From contig JAHEDH010000001.1 in the NCBI GenBank assembly GCA_024641285.1, positions 4,135 through 68,134 of the forward strand: a DNA stretch of 64,000 bases, given 5' to 3'. Source of the DNA: a bacterium. Lineage in GTDB: Bacteria > Actinomycetota > Acidimicrobiia > Spongiisociales > ZC4RG35. Shown here piece by piece: positions 6,419-55,041 of the stretch. The notes beneath the pieces were generated by a model. The model saw nothing but the letters and a program-made list of their open reading frames with translations, was not told the DNA's origin and did no database searches. Numbering within the stretch: position 1 is the first letter of the stretch; each line of letters begins with the position of its first letter. The translations under genes and the position numbers were made by a program.

Positions 6419-7639
6419 TTACCTCGCAGGGGGCTCATACAAACCTGGTACATCAATATCCGATGACCCGTAAAACTCGGGTAAACGGTCGTCGCTCATC
6501 GGAGGGGTGGAAGGGTCGGGCCCCTCGGGAAGGGCGATGGACAGGATCGACCCTCCTCCGGGCCGGATCGATGCAGAGAACCTCCCGGCGTGCATCGCAA
6601 CGATCTGTCTCACGATTCCCAGGCCCATCCCTCCGTTGCCGTGGTCGCCGTTGAGTGCGAACTCGACGTCGATGCCGGGTCCCTCGTCGAGCACGCCGAG
6701 ATAGGTCCATTCGCCCTGGCGTCTCACGACGACCCTGACGGCTGCTCCATCAGGGCTCTCGCGTACCGCATTGTCGACGAGATTCCCGATCGCCCGCCGC
6801 AACAGATTGGCGTCTGCGGCAACGGTGAGCGGCGCCGACGGGAGATCCCCCACCACCGAGACCCCACCCGCGCGAGCGGTCGGGCCGAAGTCTGCGACGA
6901 GCTCTGCGACGACTGCGCCGGGATCGATCGGGGTCAACGTGGAACCGGCGAGTTCCCGGCGTGCGACCGCCAACAGGTCGTCGACCATCACCGAGATCCG
7001 ATCCGCGGCTCGCTCGACGATCTCGCCGGTCTGTCGCCAGTCTTCGATCGTTGCGTCCGGATCGTGTGCGATGATCTCGAGGTTCGATCGGATCACGGCG
7101 AGCGGGGTGCGGAGGTCGTGCGACGTGTGCGCAAGGAACCGCTGTTGCGACCGGAACGAACCGGACAACCGGTCGAGCATCGCATCGAACGTGTTCGCCA
7201 TGCGGGTCAGCTCGTCATCGGGACCGTCGAGCGCGATGCGCCGATCCAGGTCGGTCGCCTCGATCTCGCGGGCAACGGACGTGATCTCATCGATCGGACG
7301 GAGCGACCGGCTCGCAACGATCCAGCCGACGATCAGCGAGAGAGCGAACAACGCCAGCATGATCGCGATGGTCCAGATCGCGAGCTGATTGAGGACGGCC
7401 TCCTTGAAGAAGCTCTCGATCGTTCGCATCTCCACCTGGGTCAGCCGGATGGCGACCCGCTCCCCGTCGACGAGGACCGGCTCGAGAGCCCGTTCGGTCA
7501 CGGTGAGCGACTGCACGGCGCGCAGAGTGACGAAGTAGATGCCGGCGAGCGCCAGGCCGGCAACGCTGAAGACGAGGGCCGATGTGAGGCCCGACAGCCG
7601 GAACCGGAGCGAACGTGTCACGGGTGGCAGTTGCATCAA
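6419..7639 (-). CDS. Sensor histidine kinase (MprB/CseC-like)
   Basis: Two TM segments and a HAMP-like region; H-box SHDLRTPL; N/G boxes (GNLVDNAVR, GGMGLGIVRQIV). Confidence 0.85.
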   Translation of the reverse strand: MMQLPPVTRSLRFRLSGLTSALVFSVAGLALAGIYFVTLRAVQSLTVTERALEPVLVDGERVAIRLTQVEMRTIESFFKEAVLNQLAIWTIAIMLALFALSLIVGWIVASRSLRPIDEITSVAREIEATDLDRRIALDGPDDELTRMANTFDAMLDRLSGSFRSQQRFLAHTSHDLRTPLAVIRSNLEIIAHDPDATIEDWRQTGEIVERAADRISVMVDDLLAVARRELAGSTLTPIDPGAVVAELVADFGPTARAGGVSVVGDLPSAPLTVAADANLLRRAIGNLVDNAVRESPDGAAVRVVVRRQGEWTYLGVLDEGPGIDVEFALNGDHGNGGMGLGIVRQIVAMHAGRFSASIRPGGGSILSIALPEGPDPSTPPMSDDRLPEFYGSSDIDVPGLYEPPAR

Positions 7640-7678
7640 GTCTCGAAACTATCCGCCCGTCGATAACGCACGCGTAAA

Positions 7679-8356
7679 TCAGCGGAGCACATACCCGCGC
7701 CCGGGCACCGTCTCGATGACTTGAGGCTCACCCAGCTTCTTGCGGAGGTTCGAAACGGTGACCCTGACGGTGTTCGTGAACGGGTCGGCCATCTCGTCCC
7801 ACACGTGCTCGAGGAGTCGCTCTTGGCTGAGCACTTCGCCCCGATGCCTCATGAAGTACTCGAGAAGGGCGAACTCCTTGACCGTCAGGGAGAGCGGTAC
7901 CTGGGCACGGGTCGCGACGAATGCCGCCGGGTCGAGAGCGAGGTCGCCGGCGAACAGCACCGGGGTGCCCCCGGACTCCCGTCGTAACAGCGCTCGAACT
8001 CTCGCCTCCAGTTCGGCGAACGCGAATGGCTTGACGAGGTAGTCGTCGGCACCGGCATCCAGCCCTGCGACTCGGTCCTCGATGGAGTCGCGTGCAGTGA
8101 GCATCAGCACCTTCGGCTCGAGCGATCCGAAGGTCTCCACATCGCCCGACCGCATCCGAGCGCACAGGTCGATCCCTCTGCCATCCGGGAGGTTCCAATC
8201 GAGGACCACCAAGTCGTACTCGACCGTCGAGACTGCGATCTCGGCTTCGAGAACGGACGCGACCGAATCGACCGCATGGCCACTGCGGCCGAGGCCACGT
8301 ACGATCGCCGAGGCGAGGTCTGGTTCGTCTTCCACCACCAAGAGGCGCATCGCCAC
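7679..8356 (-). CDS. OmpR-family response regulator
   Basis: REC domain (LLVVEDEPDL...DLVVLDWNLPDG) plus a winged-helix output (LTVKEFALLEYF...GRGYVLR). Confidence 0.9.
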   Translation of the reverse strand: MAMRLLVVEDEPDLASAIVRGLGRSGHAVDSVASVLEAEIAVSTVEYDLVVLDWNLPDGRGIDLCARMRSGDVETFGSLEPKVLMLTARDSIEDRVAGLDAGADDYLVKPFAFAELEARVRALLRRESGGTPVLFAGDLALDPAAFVATRAQVPLSLTVKEFALLEYFMRHRGEVLSQERLLEHVWDEMADPFTNTVRVTVSNLRKKLGEPQVIETVPGRGYVLR

Positions 8357-8449
8357 CGAACTGTATCGACGCCGCCGGCGGGCCGGGACCGACGACGCCG
8401 CTCGACCTGATCGATGGGTCGGTGCCGTGGCTCACTACATTCGTCGACG

Positions 8450-10777
8450 ATGAAGAAGCGGACACCGGTGCAACTGCCCGAGGAGATCTATCCCGACGAT
8501 CCGTGGGTTCTTCTCGAGGACCAATTCGCTCCCGACTTCCTGTACCTGACCGAGACGATCTTCGCGCTCACGAACGGCAGGATCGGTGTCCGCGGGTCGC
8601 TCGACGAGGGCGACCCGCACCACATCATCGGCACCTACATCAACGGCTTCCACGAGACCTGGCCGATCACGCACGCCGAGAGCGCATACGGGTTGGCCGA
8701 GGTGGGTCAGACGATGGTCACGATCCCCGACGGCACCCTCATCGAGGTGACGGTCGACGGCGAGCCGTTCCATCTGCCTTCGGTCGAGATCATCCGGTGC
8801 CGGCGGTGGCTCGACATCCAGCGGGGCATCCTGGAGCGGGACATCGCATGGAAATCACAGTCCGGCGTGACCGTCGAGATGCGTTTCCTCCGTTTCGTGT
8901 CGCTCGGCAGACCGGATCTCATCGTGTCCAGACTGGAGCTGTCCGTTGACATGCCGGCCGAGGTCACCGTCGTATCCAGGCTCCGCAACCGACTGGACGA
9001 GGTGGCCGATGCCGGCGACGAATCCGATCCCCGATTGGCGAAGCAGTTCTCCCAGCGGGTCCTGGAGCCGCGGGCCGCAACGCTCGAGGACTTCCGTTTC
9101 GTCCAGGCATGGGTGACATCGAGGTCCGGCATGGGACTGTTGTCGGGAATGGACCACGGTTTGTCGGGGCCGACACCCAGGGTGACACTCGACCGATCGG
9201 CGATGAACTTCGGCTTCGAGTTCTCGTGGAGCCTGACACCGGACGCAGGGGTGACGATCGACAAGTACGTCGTCGCCTCGGACAACGGCGATTCACCCGG
9301 GCTGGCGGAGCGACAAGCGATCGGGGCGACGCTCGACGAGGCCAAGGAACGGGGAGTCGCCGGCCTCGCCGCCGATCAGGCGCGTCATCTGGCCAGATTC
9401 TGGGCGGACAACGACATCGTCATCGAGGGCGCGGACGTCGAGACGCAGCGGGCGGTGCGGTGGACGCTGCTCCAGTTGCACTCGAACTCCGCTTGCCTCC
9501 GACACGCGAGCATCCCGGCCAAGGGACTCACCGGGCACGCCTACGACGGCCACTACTTCTGGGACACCGAGATCTACATCGTCCCGTTCCTGATCTACAC
9601 CAACCCGGCTGCGGCTCGAACCGTGCTCACACATCGATACGAGATGCTCGAACACGCCAGGGAGCGCGCCCGTGTCCTCTCACACGACGGGATCCTCTTT
9701 CCGTGGCGCACCATCAACGGGGAAGAGGCGTCCGCCTACTTCCTGGCAGGCACCGCCCAGTACCACATCAACGCGGACATCGTCTACGCGATCAGGAAGT
9801 ACGTCGAGGTCACAGGAGACCAGGAGTTCCTCTGGGAAATGGGCGCGGAGATCGTCCTGGAGACCGCCAAGTTCTGGCTCGACCTGGGCTTCTACCGGTC
9901 CGACCACTTCCACATCCATGGGGTGACGGGCCCGGACGAGTACACCGCACTGGTCGACGACAACGCCTACACAAATGCAATGGCGCGGATGAACCTCCGA
10001 TACGCCTTCGAGGTGGTCTCTCATCTGTCGAATGAGGACCCGGATCGATGGGACGACCTTCGAGCCAAGGTGGGGATCGCCGATGGGCAGGCGATCGAGT
10101 GGAGACTCGCCGCGGATGCCATGTACATCCCCCACGATCGCGATCTCGGGATCACACCCCAGGACGACGACTTCCTCGAGAAGGAGGCCTGGGACTTCGA
10201 GAACACGCCGGAATCGAAGTACCCGTTGCTGCTGCACTTCCACCCGCTCACCATCTACCGGTTCCAGGTGCTCAAACAGGCGGATGTCGTGCTCGCCGAC
10301 TTCCTGCTCGGCGAGGAGTTCAACCCCGAGCTGAAGCGGGCCAACTTCGACTTCTACGACCCGCTGACGACCGGGGACTCATCACTCAGCGCGTGCATCC
10401 AGGCGATCATGTCGGCGGAACTGGGGTACGAGTCGGCCGCGATGCGGCACTTCCAACACGCGCTGTACATGGACCTCGGCGACATCGCCGGCAACACGAC
10501 CGACGGCGTGCACATGGCGTCGGCCGGCGGGGTCTGGATGGCTTTGATCTACGGTTTCGCCGGCATGCGCGACGTGCGCGGGACGATCTCGTTCGACCCC
10601 AGGATGCCGAAGCAGTGGACATCGATGACCTTCCGTCTGGGCGTCCGAGGCGGCGCGCTCTCGGTCACGTTGAGCCACGAATCGATCACGCTTGTTTCGG
10701 GGCAGCCGATCGAGGTGATCGTCCGAGGCGACAGCCACACCGTCGAGCCGGGGGGCGGGACGGTCGTCCACCTCTGA
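8450..10777 (+). CDS. Glycoside hydrolase family 65 phosphorylase (kojibiose/trehalose/maltose-phosphorylase-like)
   Basis: About 775 aa; GH65 central catalytic region including GHYFWDTEIYIVPF. Start ambiguous (ATG 8414 or 8450). Confidence 0.8.
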   Translation: MKKRTPVQLPEEIYPDDPWVLLEDQFAPDFLYLTETIFALTNGRIGVRGSLDEGDPHHIIGTYINGFHETWPITHAESAYGLAEVGQTMVTIPDGTLIEVTVDGEPFHLPSVEIIRCRRWLDIQRGILERDIAWKSQSGVTVEMRFLRFVSLGRPDLIVSRLELSVDMPAEVTVVSRLRNRLDEVADAGDESDPRLAKQFSQRVLEPRAATLEDFRFVQAWVTSRSGMGLLSGMDHGLSGPTPRVTLDRSAMNFGFEFSWSLTPDAGVTIDKYVVASDNGDSPGLAERQAIGATLDEAKERGVAGLAADQARHLARFWADNDIVIEGADVETQRAVRWTLLQLHSNSACLRHASIPAKGLTGHAYDGHYFWDTEIYIVPFLIYTNPAAARTVLTHRYEMLEHARERARVLSHDGILFPWRTINGEEASAYFLAGTAQYHINADIVYAIRKYVEVTGDQEFLWEMGAEIVLETAKFWLDLGFYRSDHFHIHGVTGPDEYTALVDDNAYTNAMARMNLRYAFEVVSHLSNEDPDRWDDLRAKVGIADGQAIEWRLAADAMYIPHDRDLGITPQDDDFLEKEAWDFENTPESKYPLLLHFHPLTIYRFQVLKQADVVLADFLLGEEFNPELKRANFDFYDPLTTGDSSLSACIQAIMSAELGYESAAMRHFQHALYMDLGDIAGNTTDGVHMASAGGVWMALIYGFAGMRDVRGTISFDPRMPKQWTSMTFRLGVRGGALSVTLSHESITLVSGQPIEVIVRGDSHTVEPGGGTVVHL

Positions 10778-48846: not shown

Positions 48847-49953
48847 ATGGTCGGCCAGCCGGCAGACACGAGGTACATCGACACGGTGGTGATCGGGGGC
48901 GGACAGACAGGTCTGACCATCGGTCACGAACTGAGGCAACGCGGTTGCGACTTCGTCATCCTCGACGCCAACGAGCGGATCGGCGACGCATGGCGCAATC
49001 GATGGGACTCCCTCCTCCTCTTCACGCCGGCCCGATACAACGGTCTCCCGGGCCTGGCGTTTCCCGGCAAGCCCGACGAGTTCATCGGCAAGGACGATCT
49101 GGCCGCCTATCTCGAGCTTTACGCCGAGGCGCACGACCTCCCTGTCATGTCCGGCACACGGGTCACACGCGTCTCCCACGATGGCGCCGAATACCTGGTC
49201 GAGGCAGACGGACTGCAGCTGCGATCGGCGAACGTGATCGTGGCCATGGCCAACTACCAGGCCCCCAAGGTCCCCGACTTCGCACCCGATATCGACCCCC
49301 GCATCTTCCAGATGCATTCGAATTCGTACCGTCGCCCTTCCCAGCTCAACGACGGCCCGGCCCTCGTGGTCGGCCTCGGCAATTCGGGAGCCGACATCGG
49401 GCTCGAGCTCGCATCGACCCGGACGACGTACGTCTCGGGTCGACCGAATGCAGTGATCCCGTTCCGGATCGAACCGTGGCTCGGCCGCAACGTCGGGGTC
49501 CGGCTCGTCCGCTGGTTGGCGGTGAGACTGCTGAGCACCGCCACCCCGATCGGCAGGAAGGCGAGACCGAAGATCATGTCGCAGAGCGGCGCTCCGCTGG
49601 TCAGGGTGAAACCGCGCGACCTCGTCGCTGCCGGCGCCCGACGGGTCGAGCGGGTGACCGGCGTGTTCGACGGGAAGCCGCAGCTCGCCGACGGGACCGT
49701 TCTCGACGTGGCGAACATCATCTGGTGCACCGGATTCAAGCCCGGCTTCGACTGGATCGATCTGCCCGTCTTCGACGACGAGGGCCGGCCCACCCATGAG
49801 CGGGGGATCGTCGCAGGCCAGCCGGGCTTCTACTTCTGTGGCCTCTTCTTTCAACACTCGCTCTGGTCGGAGACGCTGTCCGGCATGCCGATCGACGCCG
49901 TTCACGTCGTCGATCACCTCGTCATCGAGCGTCCCGCGCTCGCCACGACCTGA
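48847..49953 (+). CDS. Flavin-containing-monooxygenase-like NAD(P)/FAD-dependent oxidoreductase
   Basis: VVIGGGQTG and second dinucleotide motif VVGLGNSGADIG. Start ATG 48847 (GGAG 8 nt upstream). Confidence 0.75.
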   Translation: MVGQPADTRYIDTVVIGGGQTGLTIGHELRQRGCDFVILDANERIGDAWRNRWDSLLLFTPARYNGLPGLAFPGKPDEFIGKDDLAAYLELYAEAHDLPVMSGTRVTRVSHDGAEYLVEADGLQLRSANVIVAMANYQAPKVPDFAPDIDPRIFQMHSNSYRRPSQLNDGPALVVGLGNSGADIGLELASTRTTYVSGRPNAVIPFRIEPWLGRNVGVRLVRWLAVRLLSTATPIGRKARPKIMSQSGAPLVRVKPRDLVAAGARRVERVTGVFDGKPQLADGTVLDVANIIWCTGFKPGFDWIDLPVFDDEGRPTHERGIVAGQPGFYFCGLFFQHSLWSETLSGMPIDAVHVVDHLVIERPALATT

Positions 49954-50093
49954 CGCGGGACAGACTCGAGTGTTCGAAGACTCGACGAATCGATCTGTCC
50001 GTCACAGGGCCACCGGGCTGCGTGGCCGGTTCCTGGCGCGGTCACGGTCGTGTTCACACGGGCCGACACAGACATGCCCGGTACCCTCGCTGC

Positions 50094-50564
50094 ATGGAGA
50101 TCAACCCCCAACTCGAGCGGATCTCGTTTCTGATCGGCACCTGGCGCGGCCATGGCCGTGGCGTGTATCCGACCATCGAGGCGTTCGAGTACGACGAAGA
50201 GATCGACCTCGCCCCGCTCGGACCCAAGCCGATGCTCAGATACTCGCAGTCCACCTGGATGCCGGGCACCCGGGACCCACTGCACAGCGAGATCGGATAT
50301 GTGCGTCCCGTCGGCACGGACGCGGCCGAACTCATCATTGCCCAGCCGACGGGGATCACCGAGATCCACACCGGGACGATCATCGAGCGTCGCATCGAGT
50401 TTCGAACCGTTTCCGTCGAGCGAGCGCCAAGTGCCAAAGAAGTCCTGTCGGTCGAACGTCGGATCGAGGTGCACGAAGGTCGGCTCACGTACGAGCTGTT
50501 CATGGGGGCAGTCGGACAGCCGCACCAGCTCCACCTGGAAGCCACCCTGGAGAAGTCGAAATGA
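50094..50564 (+). CDS. Nitrobindin / THAP4-C-like heme-binding beta-barrel (DUF1794) protein
   Basis: MEINPQLERISFLIGTWRGHGRGVYPTIEAFEYDEEI...; 156 aa from ATG 50094. Confidence 0.65.
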   Translation: MEINPQLERISFLIGTWRGHGRGVYPTIEAFEYDEEIDLAPLGPKPMLRYSQSTWMPGTRDPLHSEIGYVRPVGTDAAELIIAQPTGITEIHTGTIIERRIEFRTVSVERAPSAKEVLSVERRIEVHEGRLTYELFMGAVGQPHQLHLEATLEKSK

Positions 50565-51112
50565 TCAGCTCGGGTCGGTGACCTGACCAAAGAACAGCAT
50601 CTCGCCCGTCGTGGTGTGCTCGATCCAGAAGCGGAACGGGTGGTCGGCAGAGAACGTCGCCGGCTCGGGCGCCGGCGCCGACCGGTGGTTCGAATGCGGC
50701 GCGCATCCCGAGCGTCTGGAGCGCCGACTTCAGCGAGATCTGCGCCTCGAACTCGAAGGACGGCAGCGTGATTTCCACACCGCGATCCTCTCAGGCGATC
50801 TGCAGGTCGGCCGGCTGCAACGATGCCGCCGGCTCGGCCGGTGTTCCCTCATCGGGCAGGAGGATGACCGTTGCTGCGTCGCCGGCGTACGGCAATCGCA
50901 CGGCCCGACAGCCGTCTGCCTCGGCATATGCCGTTCGTAGGTCCGTGTGCATCAAAGGAGTCTGGACCTCGGCCCTGTCGGTTCTGTGCCTGTGCGCGTA
51001 CCTGTACGGCGGTCACGCCGGCCGTGCCGACGGTCTTGATGTCGCTCGGAGCTGCGGCCATCACGGCCGGCAGAACGAGCAGCGCGAGGATCAACAGTGT
51101 CTTGCGCCTCAT
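50565..51112 (-). pseudogene. Decayed serpin gene: signal peptide plus fragments of s3A, s3C and the C-terminal s4B/s5B motifs in three frames, with a premature in-frame TGA and large internal deletions
   Basis: Frame 1: MRRKTLLILALLVLPAVMAAAPS... after an AAGGAGG RBS. Frame 2: ...VQTPLMHTDLRTAYAEADGCRAVRLPYAGDAATVILLPDEG...LQPADLQIA*EDRGVEITLPSFEFEAQISLKSALQTLGMRAAF. Frame 3: ...FSADHPFRFWIEHTTTGEMLFFGQVTDPS*. Total about 180 codons against about 400 in an intact serpin. Confidence 0.55.
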
Positions 51113-51207
51113 CTCTGGGCCTCCTTTCGGCCCAAGTACACCCCCATGTGACCTCTGCGACGTGAAGACGCCGACATCGCGATCGTGAAGCCCGGGCTCG
51201 GCTGCGA

Positions 51208-51429
51208 TCAGGACCGGAACAGCTCGAGCAGGAGCAAGCCCACACCCATGAGCGCCACCATCAGCCCGATGAACCGCACGAGGAACTCGTAGGAGGCCAT
51301 CGCCTCTCCCCCGCGCCGGTCGAGGGCATTCGGCCACACGCGCACGGCCCGTTTGACGACGTGCAGTGAGTTTGCGGCGGCCAGCCCGCCCAACACCAGC
51401 AGCAACGCACCGACAAGTGCCAGATACAT
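51208..51429 (-). CDS. Small (73-aa) two-helix membrane protein of unknown function
   Basis: MYLALVGALLLVLGGLAANSLHVV...FLVRFIGLMVALMGVGLLLLELFRS; GGGAGGT RBS 5 nt upstream of the ATG. Confidence 0.45.
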   Translation of the reverse strand: MYLALVGALLLVLGGLAAANSLHVVKRAVRVWPNALDRRGGEAMASYEFLVRFIGLMVALMGVGLLLLELFRS

Positions 51430-51508: not shown

Positions 51509-53281
51509 TCAGCCGCGGCTGGGCTCCGACGAGACGACGCGCCCGGGAGGTGTGGCCTCGAACTCCGATCTGGCAGCCGGGACGGTGAGCCAGAAGCAGG
51601 CGCCGCCGAGACGCTCCGAGACCTTGTGGCCGGTGTGACCATCGTGCGCAACAACCAGTTGACGGGCGATGGACAGTCCGAGCCCGGAACCCTGAACGGC
51701 ACTGAGATACGTGTGAGGTCCTCGTTCGAAGCGGTCCCAGATCGTCACCTCGTACTTCTTCGGAATCCCAGGACCGTTGTCGTGCACCTCGATCGTCGTC
51801 TCACCGCCGGCGCGGTAGGCGCGCACTTCGACGACACCATTTCCATAGCGGCCGGCGTTGGTGAGGTAGTTCACGAGCACCTGCCGGAGCCGGTCGACGT
51901 CACCGAGCACTGTCAGACCAGGCTCGACGTGTGCGGAGATCTGCGCCATGGAAGCGCCGTTGGTGAGCATCCCGACTGCCGAATCGATCAGCTCCGACGC
52001 GGGGATGGTCGAGTAGGTGAGCTTGGTCGTTCCGAGCTTGTCCCTGGCTACCTCCACGAGGTCTCCGACGATTCGGGAGAGGTGCTTCGTCTGGGCGTTG
52101 ACGATGGAGATCATCTCCACTCGATCGTCTCGGGGGAGATCTGGATCGAAATCGAGGATGTCGGTGAAGCCCGACATGGCAGTCAGCGGAGTGCGCAGCT
52201 CGTGAGATATGGAAGCGACGAGATCGTTGCGCTGTTTCTCGACCACGTCCCGAGTCTCCTTGATCGCCACACCCTGGCGAGCGATCACTATGAGCCCGAC
52301 GACGGCGGTGGCGACCTGCAGGATCGTCGCCTGCTCGCCGAGCTCGCCCATCGTCAGAGCGAACAGCACGGCGATCGCCGAGTAAGGCGCAACCATCGGC
52401 CAGATCCGTCCTGGCCGATCCGCCTGCTCTCGGAGGACGGTTGGACCTGCGACCATGAGAGCCGCAATCGCAAACAAGCCATAGCCGAGCAGCCATGCTG
52501 CATCCAGTCGCCCACCCTCGAAATACGTATCCGCCTCGACCTGGAACACATACGCCATGTCTGCGAGCGCAGTCACGAGCATTCCGGCCGAGACGAGGAG
52601 CAGGCGACCATCGAACTGGAGCTGCGAGCGACGAGTCGCCAGAATCATCAGAGCGACCAAGAGGATCAGGTCGCCGACGGGATACGCGAGGTTGATCACG
52701 TTCTCCAGGATGCCCGCCTCGGAGTCCAGGTAGATGGCGTCCTTGAGATAGAACGTCCAGACGATCGCGGACAATGCCATCGTCCCCGCCAGGGCGTCGA
52801 GTGTGAGGCGGGCCCGTTCCCACTTCCGGACTTGCATGTGGGGAAGCATCAGAATGCCGATGAAGATGACGGGATAGGCGGCAACGTAGAACACATCCGC
52901 AAGGCCAGGATACGGCACGTCCACATCGAGGAACCAGGAGTAGTAGATCCAGATCAGCTCGCCGACTCCCCAGGCGGCCACGCCGACGCCGATCAGCGTC
53001 CAGGCGGCGGTGCCCGTTTCTTTCCGCCGAAGCGCCGCCGCAACGAGGAGCAAACCGGCGCCAATGGGGCCGATCGCGAATGTCCAGTTGGTCACACCGA
53101 AGATGAAGTCCTCGCTGCCGACCTGGAACCCCATGACGAGGGCTCCGATCAGGCACGCTCCCACCACGAGCAGCCAGAAGGCGCGGAGTGCGTACGAGAG
53201 CTGGGCCCAAGCGGCCCGCCATATGGGGAAGAGTTGTTTCGACGACCAGGGGATCGCCTTTGCGTATGTGAGTCCAGCCAT
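51509..53281 (-). CDS. Sensor histidine kinase with an N-terminal polytopic (about 8-10 TM) membrane sensor domain; no adjacent response regulator
   Basis: H-box ISHELRTPL; HATPase (NYLTNAGRYG, GSGLGLSIARQLV). Start taken at ATG 53281 so as not to overlap the divergent oxidoreductase gene; the GTG 53446 alternative is unlikely. Confidence 0.7.
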   Translation of the reverse strand: MAGLTYAKAIPWSSKQLFPIWRAAWAQLSYALRAFWLLVVGACLIGALVMGFQVGSEDFIFGVTNWTFAIGPIGAGLLLVAAALRRKETGTAAWTLIGVGVAAWGVGELIWIYYSWFLDVDVPYPGLADVFYVAAYPVIFIGILMLPHMQVRKWERARLTLDALAGTMALSAIVWTFYLKDAIYLDSEAGILENVINLAYPVGDLILLVALMILATRRSQLQFDGRLLLVSAGMLVTALADMAYVFQVEADTYFEGGRLDAAWLLGYGLFAIAALMVAGPTVLREQADRPGRIWPMVAPYSAIAVLFALTMGELGEQATILQVATAVVGLIVIARQGVAIKETRDVVEKQRNDLVASISHELRTPLTAMSGFTDILDFDPDLPRDDRVEMISIVNAQTKHLSRIVGDLVEVARDKLGTTKLTYSTIPASELIDSAVGMLTNGASMAQISAHVEPGLTVLGDVDRLRQVLVNYLTNAGRYGNGVVEVRAYRAGGETTIEVHDNGPGIPKKYEVTIWDRFERGPHTYLSAVQGSGLGLSIARQLVVAHDGHTGHKVSERLGGACFWLTVPAARSEFEATPPGRVVSSEPSRG

Positions 53282-53436
53282 TCGGTCCAGGTCGGCGGAT
53301 GTTTCGAAGACATAAGGATTCGCAATAGGTCGACATTTGCGGCTGTGCAAAACCGTGATGTAGCACGTCGCACCACCGCTGTTGCACGCGATCGCGATAC
53401 CGTGATCGGGAGAACGCCCCCAGAAGTAGTAGCCAG

Positions 53437-55041
53437 ATGCCGACACCGATGAGCAGCCGAGATCGACCCTGGAGCCACGAAGTCCCCGATGGGCCGTGGG
53501 ACGCCATCGTGATCGGATCCGGAATGGGAGGGATGGCGAGCGCGGCCGTGCTCGCCAGGCTCGGACAGCGCGTGCTCGTACTGGAACAGCACGTCATCCC
53601 GGGTGGCTTCACCCAGACCTTCAAGCGGCCTGGACATCACTGGGATGTCGGCGTCCACATCGTCGGCGAGATGACCGAGCGGACGTTCGCCGGGCGTCTC
53701 CTGGCCGACCTCACAGACAGACGGCTCGAGTGGCAGTCGGTCGGACCGATCTACGACGAATTCAACTTCCCCGATGGTTTCACCATCCAGTTCCCCGACT
53801 CACCCGAAGCCTTCCGAGCGACGCTCGTCGACTACTTCCCAGACGAGCGCAAGGGGATCGACGACTATCTGGCGCTCGTGCGCCGGGTCTCCCGCGCAGC
53901 CGGGCGGAACCTCCAGATGCGGGCATTGCCTTGGTACCTGGCGCCCGGCGGGCGCAGGAAGGCCGCCGAGACCGCCCATGAGCACATCGCAGCCACCACC
54001 CAGAGCGTGCTGGACTCGCTCATCGCCGACCCGCACCTGCGCTCGGTGCTCGCCGCCCAGTGGGGCTACTACGGCGTCCCGCCGTCGCGTTCGTCGTTCG
54101 CCATGCATGCCCTCATGGTCCAGCACTTCCTCTACGGCGCCTCCTACCCGGTCGGGAGCGCCGCGAGCATCGCACCCGCCCTCCTCCAGACGGTTGCTGA
54201 CGCCGGCGGCTGGACAGCCGTCCGGCGAACCGTCGACCGGATCATCGTCCGCCGCGGCCGGGCCGCCGGTGTGCGGCTCGACGACGGCACCGAGATCGAG
54301 TCCGATCGGGTGGTCAGCGCTGCCGGGGCGATACCAACTGCCGCCATGCTCTCCGGTGAGACGCCCGACGGTTGGGACGAGGGGTACCGCCGCCCCGGGC
54401 CGGCCCATCTCAGCCTGTACCTCGGGTTCGCAGGCACCGACATCTCCGAGCACGGCGCCGAGCGCTACTGCCAGTGGTACTACGACTCGTGGGACACCGA
54501 GACGATCGGCTGGGACATCGACCGAGAGCGGGACCTCGGCACAGCCCCCGTGCTGTTCTGCAGTTTCCCGTCGGTCAAAGACCCGCTGCACGACCCGGGC
54601 CCCGAACAGCGCCACACGGGTGAGGCCATCACCTTCGTGCCGTGGGAGCCCTTCTCGACGTGGAAGGAAGCTCGCTGGAAGCGACGTGGGCCGGAGTACG
54701 ACGAATTCAAGGACCGCCTCACCGATGCCCTCCTCACTCAGTATCGCGAGGTGTATCCCGGGCTGGCGCAGTACGTCGAGCACGCCGAGCTGTCGACGCC
54801 GGTGTCGACTCACCATTTCACCTCTGCCCCGGAGGGATCGATCTATGGCCTCGCAACCGAGCCGGGACGCTTCGAGGACGAAACGCTGGTTCCCCGAAGC
54901 GCCATCTCGGGTCTGTTCCTGTCCGGAGCCGACGTCAGCACGCCAGGAGTGGCCGGGGCGCTGATGGGCGGGCTGCTGGCCGCGGTCGCGGCTTCGCCGA
55001 TCTCGGGCGGGCGCTACGTGCGGCGGCTCATGGCGCCCTGA
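53437..55041 (+). CDS. NAD(P)/FAD-dependent oxidoreductase of the phytoene-desaturase (CrtI) / retinol-saturase family
   Basis: AIVIGSGMGGMASAAVLARLGQRVLVLEQHVIPGG dinucleotide fold; 534 aa, amine-oxidase-like C-terminus. Confidence 0.7.
   Translation: MPTPMSSRDRPWSHEVPDGPWDAIVIGSGMGGMASAAVLARLGQRVLVLEQHVIPGGFTQTFKRPGHHWDVGVHIVGEMTERTFAGRLLADLTDRRLEWQSVGPIYDEFNFPDGFTIQFPDSPEAFRATLVDYFPDERKGIDDYLALVRRVSRAAGRNLQMRALPWYLAPGGRRKAAETAHEHIAATTQSVLDSLIADPHLRSVLAAQWGYYGVPPSRSSFAMHALMVQHFLYGASYPVGSAASIAPALLQTVADAGGWTAVRRTVDRIIVRRGRAAGVRLDDGTEIESDRVVSAAGAIPTAAMLSGETPDGWDEGYRRPGPAHLSLYLGFAGTDISEHGAERYCQWYYDSWDTETIGWDIDRERDLGTAPVLFCSFPSVKDPLHDPGPEQRHTGEAITFVPWEPFSTWKEARWKRRGPEYDEFKDRLTDALLTQYREVYPGLAQYVEHAELSTPVSTHHFTSAPEGSIYGLATEPGRFEDETLVPRSAISGLFLSGADVSTPGVAGALMGGLLAAVAASPISGGRYVRRLMAP

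Follow-up and report, generated by a model that had tools for sequence, protein, structure and literature searches.

A serpin pseudogene and its probable deletion scar in a bacterial genome

The minus strand of the window, as we call the whole 64 kb stretch of bacterial DNA analysed here, carries at 50565-51112 the remains of a serpin gene, which is very probably a pseudogene left as a deletion scar in the course of ordinary gene loss. Relative to the intact 446-codon orthologue of the related locus L003, 139 codons are kept and 307 (69%) are gone, and the view taken in an earlier note, that the locus holds a non-functional serpin remnant, is borne out. The ribosome-binding site and signal peptide in front of the remnant, which the same note had taken for the serpin's own, belong to a different gene. 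Judged from the relatives that were found, the host appears to be a member of the Actinomycetota, class Acidimicrobiia.

The serpin remnant and its lesions

In the translation of 51142-50540, collinear pieces of a serpin are seen with three reading frames in play, and the peptides in which serpin landmarks had previously been recognised all lie on the minus strand (Table 1). When the three pieces were compared separately with the Pfam Serpin profile (PF00079), they matched it collinearly at positions 182-242 (E 2.4e-7), 260-290 (6e-5), and 333-370 (2e-8); stitched together into 139 aa, they scored 88.4 bits (E 7e-25). This match far exceeds chance, and the motif assignments made earlier from the sequence alone are supported by the profile search as serpin matches. 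Individual blocks are probably better named differently: on the topology of alpha1-antitrypsin, LPYAGD..LLPDEG would be s2B/s3B rather than s3A, and ITLPSFEF.. would be s2C/s6A rather than s3C. A complete serpin domain of ~370 positions in one open reading frame is absent from the window; the kept parts sit in two frames with an internal TGA, and tblastn with the L003 serpin found no second serpin in the 64 kb.

The same tblastn search, with an intact serpin as the query, mapped the lesions: residues 1-264 and 369-411 of the L003 protein are without a counterpart in the window. Missing from the remnant are helices A-F, the greater part of beta-sheet A, and the protease-trapping loop. Serpin inhibition requires insertion of the reactive-centre loop into a complete beta-sheet A. 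Because the loop, strand s5A, and the N-terminal 60% of the protein are gone, no serpin activity is possible.

The internal TGA replaces the codon of an invariant tryptophan, as had been proposed, this residue being Trp in 10/10 homologous fragments and in the L003 orthologue (W327). TGA is one base away from TGG, the sole Trp codon, and the same TGA is read in an independent contig (L070). In L071, the nearest relative that covers the 3' side (its THAP4 protein is 79% identical), the Trp and the reactive-centre loop are both present.

The suggested loss of the reactive-centre loop proved to be a clean gap of 134 nt in the alignment of the window with L003, L004, and L071 (deletion 2), located by blastn at ~10394-10522 of L003. 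The residues lost, 369-411 of L003, contain strand s5A together with the hinge and the reactive-centre loop; hinge and loop are present in L003, L004, and L071 and absent in the window. Against the metagenomic serpin fragments retrieved with the stitched sequence, a gap of ~45 residues likewise spans ..DGADFTGITEVRELFVTDAFHKTFIALDEEGTEAAAATAIVVGLTS.. (s5A, hinge, reactive-centre loop). As 134 equals 3 x 44 + 2, the reading frame changes at this point. In the relatives, GGYGCC direct repeats stand at both end points of the deletion, while the window junction reads GGCGCCGGCGCC, and deletion 2 probably arose by slippage between these short repeats. Bacterial pseudogenes can arise by deletion between short direct repeats, and multi-gene deletions can leave fusion scars. 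The 134-nt deletion, flanked by GGYGCC in the relatives, resembles the former, and the junction described in the next section, at which the 5' end of one gene is joined to the 3' part of another, resembles the latter. Together, an out-of-frame junction at deletion 1 and the 134-nt deletion explain the three frames without small indels. The heavy decay described earlier therefore stands with respect to the 69% of codons that are gone, but not with respect to scattered frameshifts, since two deletions account for the frame changes.

Table 1. Features of the locus and its flanks, with positions in the window
Feature	Position	Strand	Basis or remarks
Ribosome-binding site AAGGAGG	51120..51126	minus	7 nt before the ATG at 51112; read from sequence
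Frame A, ORF of 87 aa and stop	ATG at 51112, stop 50849-50851	minus	starts MRRKTLLILALLVLPAVMAAAPSD
Chimeric ORF, 87 aa and stop: sec 5' end, then out-of-frame serpin DNA	50849..51112	minus	no match in Pfam search, serpin included
sec 5' end, first ~44-45 codons including Sec-type signal peptide	50981..51112	minus	tblastn, alignment, blastn to 50984
Deletion 1 junction, ~3.1 kb relative to L003 6947-10089	50975..50984		blastn, tblastn, DNA alignments
Frame B, ..DRAEVQTPLMHTDLRTAYAEADGCRAVRLPYAGDAATVILLPDEG..LQIA, TGA, then EDRGVEITLPSFEFEAQISLKSALQTLGMRAAFEPPVG	TGA 50793-50791	minus	translation
Serpin codons 265-368 (L003 numbering)	50668..50979	minus	second frame; 63% amino acid identity (tblastn, 50979-50668); Pfam positions 182-290 matched
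Peptide LPYAGDAATVILLPDEG	50895-50845	minus	
TGA replacing invariant Trp codon (W327 of L003 serpin)	50791..50793	minus	alignment
Peptide ITLPSFEFEAQISLKSALQTLGM	50772-50704	minus	
Deletion 2 junction, 134 nt (3 x 44 + 2)	50668..50680		in GGCGCCGGCGCC stretch; DNA alignment
Frame C, APAPEPATFSADHPFRFWIEHTTTGEMLFFGQVTDPS	stop 50565-50567	minus	translation
Serpin C-terminal 35-37 codons and stop	50565..50678	minus	third frame; 83% identity to L003 residues 412-446 (tblastn, 50672-50568)
Peptide FSADHPFRFWIEH...VTDPS and stop	50654-50565	minus	
THAP4-type haem-binding beta-barrel gene, synteny anchor	50097..50564	plus	Pfam PF08768, E 3e-40; abuts serpin stop
Small membrane-protein gene, 73 aa, second synteny anchor	51208..51429	minus	first gene of the cluster's upstream side in relatives
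Flank	57859-55113		blastn, L003 1-2753
Flank	55033-53464		blastn, L003 4497-6066
Small membrane-protein gene and 5' end of next gene	51439-51007		blastn, L003 6512-6946
Serpin	50971-50668		blastn, L003 10090-10393
Serpin 3' end and THAP4-type gene	50672-50160		blastn, L003 10523-11025
Flank	49938-47075		blastn, L003 11252-14119

The ancestral cluster and the origin of the 5' end

By blastn, the window matches L003 and L004 collinearly on both sides of the lesions, at 69-80% nucleotide identity, and the remnant occupies the same genomic position as a lipoprotein serpin of Acidimicrobiia, between the small-membrane-protein gene and the THAP4-type gene. In L003, the interval 6512-10630 encodes a membrane protein of 71-73 aa, a secreted protein of 175 aa that starts MRRRTLMILALSLLLVIPAVVAVAASD (here sec), an OmpR-type regulator (Pfam Response_reg and Trans_reg_C), a HAMP kinase (HAMP, HisKA, and HATPase_c), and the lipoprotein serpin, whose 446 aa cover profile positions 3-370 with 313 bits; genes for a THAP4-type haem-binding protein and for a flavin monooxygenase follow downstream in convergent orientation. 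A search of NCBIfam with sec, the small membrane protein, and the serpin gave no matches. As far as orthologous loci are concerned, which the earlier note had proposed to check for an intact gene, L003/L078, L004, and L077 all have the full series of sec, regulator, kinase, and serpin with the convergent THAP4 gene. In the closer relatives L073 and L075, the cluster is present as far as the contig end. L075 and L071 come from one sample, JGI 3300045684, whose small membrane protein matches that of the window at 84% identity over 79% of its length and whose THAP4 protein is 79% identical; the 5' part of the cluster and an intact serpin 3' end were both found in this sample. The THAP4-type neighbour occurs in L001, L003, L004, L005, and L071, and among more distant Acidimicrobiia the serpin is found in other gene contexts. 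Loss in the lineage of the window is the parsimonious reading.

The junction upstream of the serpin codons (deletion 1) joins sec codon ~45 to serpin codon 265 out of frame, and what is lost there, measured against L003, is the rest of sec, the OmpR-type response regulator, the HAMP histidine kinase, and serpin codons 1-264. DNA synteny places window 51439-51007 in line with the small-membrane-protein gene and the sec 5' end of L003, L004, L073, and L075, and in L003 and L004 the stretch AAGAAAGGAGG-N-ATGAGGCGCA is likewise kept in front of sec. At the protein level, L003 sec residues 2-48 align by tblastn with window 51112-50981 at 60% identity, and the first ~45 residues of the open reading frame align with the sec proteins of L075, L073, L074, L076, L003, and L004 (MRRKTLLILAL..PAVMA..QVR.QAQ), the agreement holding through ..AQVR.QAQ(D/N)R, after which the window departs. 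Because the DNA and the peptide of the window match sec of the relatives here, the ribosome-binding site and signal peptide are those of the sec 5' end and not the serpin's own. The secreted N-terminal serpin peptide of 88 aa that had been predicted is instead ~45 sec codons followed by out-of-frame serpin DNA. Read from the sequence, its sec part would have MRRK as the n-region, then a hydrophobic core and perhaps a cleavage site at VMA/AA; its tail is arginine-rich. This 87 aa chimera is plausibly the sole translatable product of the locus, with a tail that most likely has no function. An exact look-up in the assembly collection found no gene on record with exactly this product.

At the deletion junctions, neither a mobile element nor extra DNA was found, and the longest repeats near the deletion 1 junction are 10-21 nt and imperfect. 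A consensus scan for promoters and terminators at the locus returned nothing, such consensus sequences being uninformative for this phylum. At the other end of the locus, the stop codon of the convergent THAP4-type gene (TGA, 50562-50564) directly adjoins that of the minus-strand serpin remnant (50565-50567), with no base between them. The longest reading frame of the THAP4 gene in L003 reaches ~22 nt into the serpin 3' end. Used as a query, the THAP4 protein of the window gave only distant matches in the metagenome contig scan (52% and 34% identity), no relatives in the genome contig scan, and no record in an exact look-up of the assembly collection.

The sec family comprises proteins of 163-175 aa (loci L003 6829-7356, L075 507-998, and L073 8336-8827) that share a conserved cysteine pattern (DCGEC and NCDGD), DQV(R/Q) repeats rich in Q, D, and R, and the C-terminal motif GNGPLHEGPxDGTGNQFGR, and it has no match in Pfam or NCBIfam. 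In five of five loci (L003, L004, L073, L075, and L077), sec is followed downstream by the OmpR-type regulator and the HAMP kinase, and it may be an accessory protein of this adjoining two-component system.

Two further sets of signalling genes in the window deserve mention. On the minus strand at 51509-53446 lies an orphan membrane histidine kinase (HisKA and HATPase_c) with a weak MASE3-like N-terminus and no adjacent response regulator. Relatives differ in the slot that it fills, between the FAD/amine oxidoreductase and small-membrane-protein genes: L003, L073, and L074 have nothing there, L004 has a DAO/GCV_T dehydrogenase, and the closest relative, L076, has the kinase of the window (81% nucleotide identity). 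The idea that the kinase was inserted by the deletion event was ruled out, as L076 carries it too. A response-regulator/histidine-kinase pair at 6530-8416 (minus strand) is 36% and 27% identical to the deleted pair, and is a paralogue rather than the missing orthologue.

Orthologous serpins and the degree of decay

Scanning the GTDB species genomes with the serpin alignment gave 65 loci, of which the 31 closest are 59-89% identical to the query fragment and come almost entirely from metagenome-assembled genomes of Acidimicrobiia. The orthologous reading frames are ~440-460 aa long. A lipoprotein-type signal ending in ..AACG.. (MR..LVAAACG..) is found in 26 of the 28 full-length orthologues, whereas the open reading frame of the window has no lipobox signal, and most orthologues have the canonical inhibitory hinge DEEGTEAAAAT. 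This lipoprotein serpin (matches L003-L033) is widespread in metagenome-assembled genomes of the class; more distant relatives, from Latescibacterota, Chloroflexota, Planctomycetota, and Nakamurella, are 32-46% identical. Disruptions were also seen elsewhere. At L001 170-172, an in-frame TAG stands where L003 has GAG. At L077 10768-12109, gene calling splits the serpin into products of 297 and 146 aa, and comparison with L078 shows a net +1 indel; several other L077 genes nearby are likewise split, which suggests assembly errors there. These two cases could reflect repeated loss of this serpin or sequencing error.

Among solved structures of the serpin superfamily (PF00079), the L003 serpin is closest to 8gxv_A, 'Proteinase inhibitor I4 serpin' (E 8e-61), and the intact orthologue also matches leukocyte elastase inhibitor (4ga7), conserpin (5cdx), and miropin (5ncs). 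The window copy differs from the superfamily in being without 69% of the protein, the reactive-centre loop included, and in being split between two frames with an internal stop, and it can neither fold nor act as an inhibitor. Miropin of Tannerella forsythia is described as a broad-range bacterial serpin whose exposure on the cell surface is probable (PMC4604654). To judge from the lipobox in 26/28 orthologues, the ancestral gene here would similarly have encoded an exported, probably lipid-anchored serpin. In contrast to miropin, it belongs to another phylum, in the class Acidimicrobiia; in the nearest relatives, a two-component system precedes the orthologue, and the copy in the window is a remnant. 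A literature search for 'prokaryotic serpins' combined with lipoprotein found nothing.

In its substitutions, the remnant departs only mildly from the intact genes. It is off consensus at 3/29 invariant columns and at 8/59 columns conserved in at least 90% of sequences, the maxima among the 31 intact orthologues being 2 and 7, respectively. Pairwise dN is ~0.18 for the window versus 0.10-0.13 for intact genes (~1.5-2 times the intact level) and pairwise dN/dS is ~0.20-0.25 versus 0.11-0.19 in intact orthologues, values that must be read together with the THAP4 control, which also gives the window a longer branch. Set against the divergence from the nearest known relatives, the inactivation is not ancient. 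It had been called recent on the strength of an intact ribosome-binding site and signal peptide, but both belong to sec and, being supplied by a fused neighbour, they are uninformative on how recently the serpin gene died; the substitution excess itself is modest.

Alternative explanations and significance

Decay in place, with the serpin gene accumulating frameshifts and internal deletions while keeping its own ribosome-binding site and signal peptide, would account for the good ribosome-binding site and plausible signal peptide that are found upstream of the serpin pieces and on their strand. However, the DNA that carries them is collinear with a separate sec gene ~2.4 kb upstream of the serpin in L003 and L004, the peptide aligns with six sec proteins, and the lipobox MR..LVAAACG.. 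used by the orthologous serpins is absent from the window ORF, so that this course of events is extremely unlikely. Nor do we give any real credence to a functional short or recoded serpin-like protein, whether made by programmed frameshifting and read-through or as a 'half-serpin'. Several 'serpin B' proteins of 173-174 aa in the first homology search had pointed in that direction, but the short proteins in L001 and L002 are truncated calls, both from an internal Met. The L002 gene runs off the contig start and the in-frame TAG of L001 precedes the Met, and a 173 aa half-serpin family was accordingly rejected. Read-through in the window would still leave a protein without residues 1-264 and 369-411, and thus without sheet A strands and the reactive-centre loop.

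The remaining alternative concerns the assembly: deletion 1 could be an artefact, in which case the genome would still contain sec, the two-component system, and the 5' part of the serpin, and the serpin would be dead through the 134-nt deletion and the TGA alone. Two Logan contigs from SRR12825431, for which a literature search found nothing, bear on this point. L070 equals window 49870-50947 with one mismatch (50206, inside the THAP4 gene), and L072 equals window 53808-51084 exactly. L070 reproduces the TGA and the 134-nt deletion in an independent assembly, possibly made from the window's own reads. The two contigs stop on either side of the deletion 1 junction (~50980), which falls in the 136-nt stretch 51083-50948 between their ends and for which the window assembly is the sole source. 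The contig break at 50948-51083 could be due to low coverage or strain heterogeneity. On the other hand, the repeats near the junction are too short to mislead an assembler, identity between the flanks and the independent contigs is 99.9-100%, and a gene with two other lethal lesions is a plausible target of further deletion. An artefact at this junction is therefore very unlikely in our judgement.

Under the preferred explanation, loss of the serpin by deletion, the ancestor carried the genes of a small membrane protein, a sec of 163-175 aa, an OmpR-type regulator, and a HAMP histidine kinase, followed by that of a lipoprotein serpin of ~446 aa and a convergent THAP4-type gene. A deletion of ~3.1 kb fused sec codon ~45 to serpin codon 265, and the two-component system was lost along with 59% of the serpin. 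A 134-nt deletion, probably by GGYGCC slippage, took out s5A and the hinge as well as the reactive-centre loop and changed the frame a second time, and a change of TGG to TGA abolished the invariant Trp. The outcome is a locus that makes no inhibitor and retains an 87 aa chimera under the ribosome-binding site and signal peptide of sec. The data show the homology, the collinearity, how far the deletions extend, and, through a second assembly, the TGA and deletion 2. We infer that deletion 1 was a single event, that slippage was at work, in what order the lesions arose, and that the chimera has no function; with nearest relatives at ~70-80% DNA identity, the junctions are placed within a few bases, and the number and order of events are beyond proof.

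Annotation of the locus should read serpin pseudogene with a deletion scar, and the 87 aa ORF should be labelled neither a serpin nor a serpin signal peptide. An intact ribosome-binding site or signal peptide in front of pseudogene pieces can derive from a deletion-fused neighbour, which calls for caution. Beyond annotation, the import of the finding is small. We consider it unlikely that sec, regulator, kinase, and serpin form a dedicated envelope module that senses proteolytic stress and brings a serpin to the surface, of which the organism of the window would be a natural knock-out, or that a new secreted peptide of 87 aa, created by the deletion, is expressed; the cluster itself was found in the nearest Acidimicrobiia relatives only. 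For research on bacterial serpins, what the locus brings to attention is a widespread lipoprotein serpin of Acidimicrobiia, which one sub-lineage has behind a two-component system and sec.
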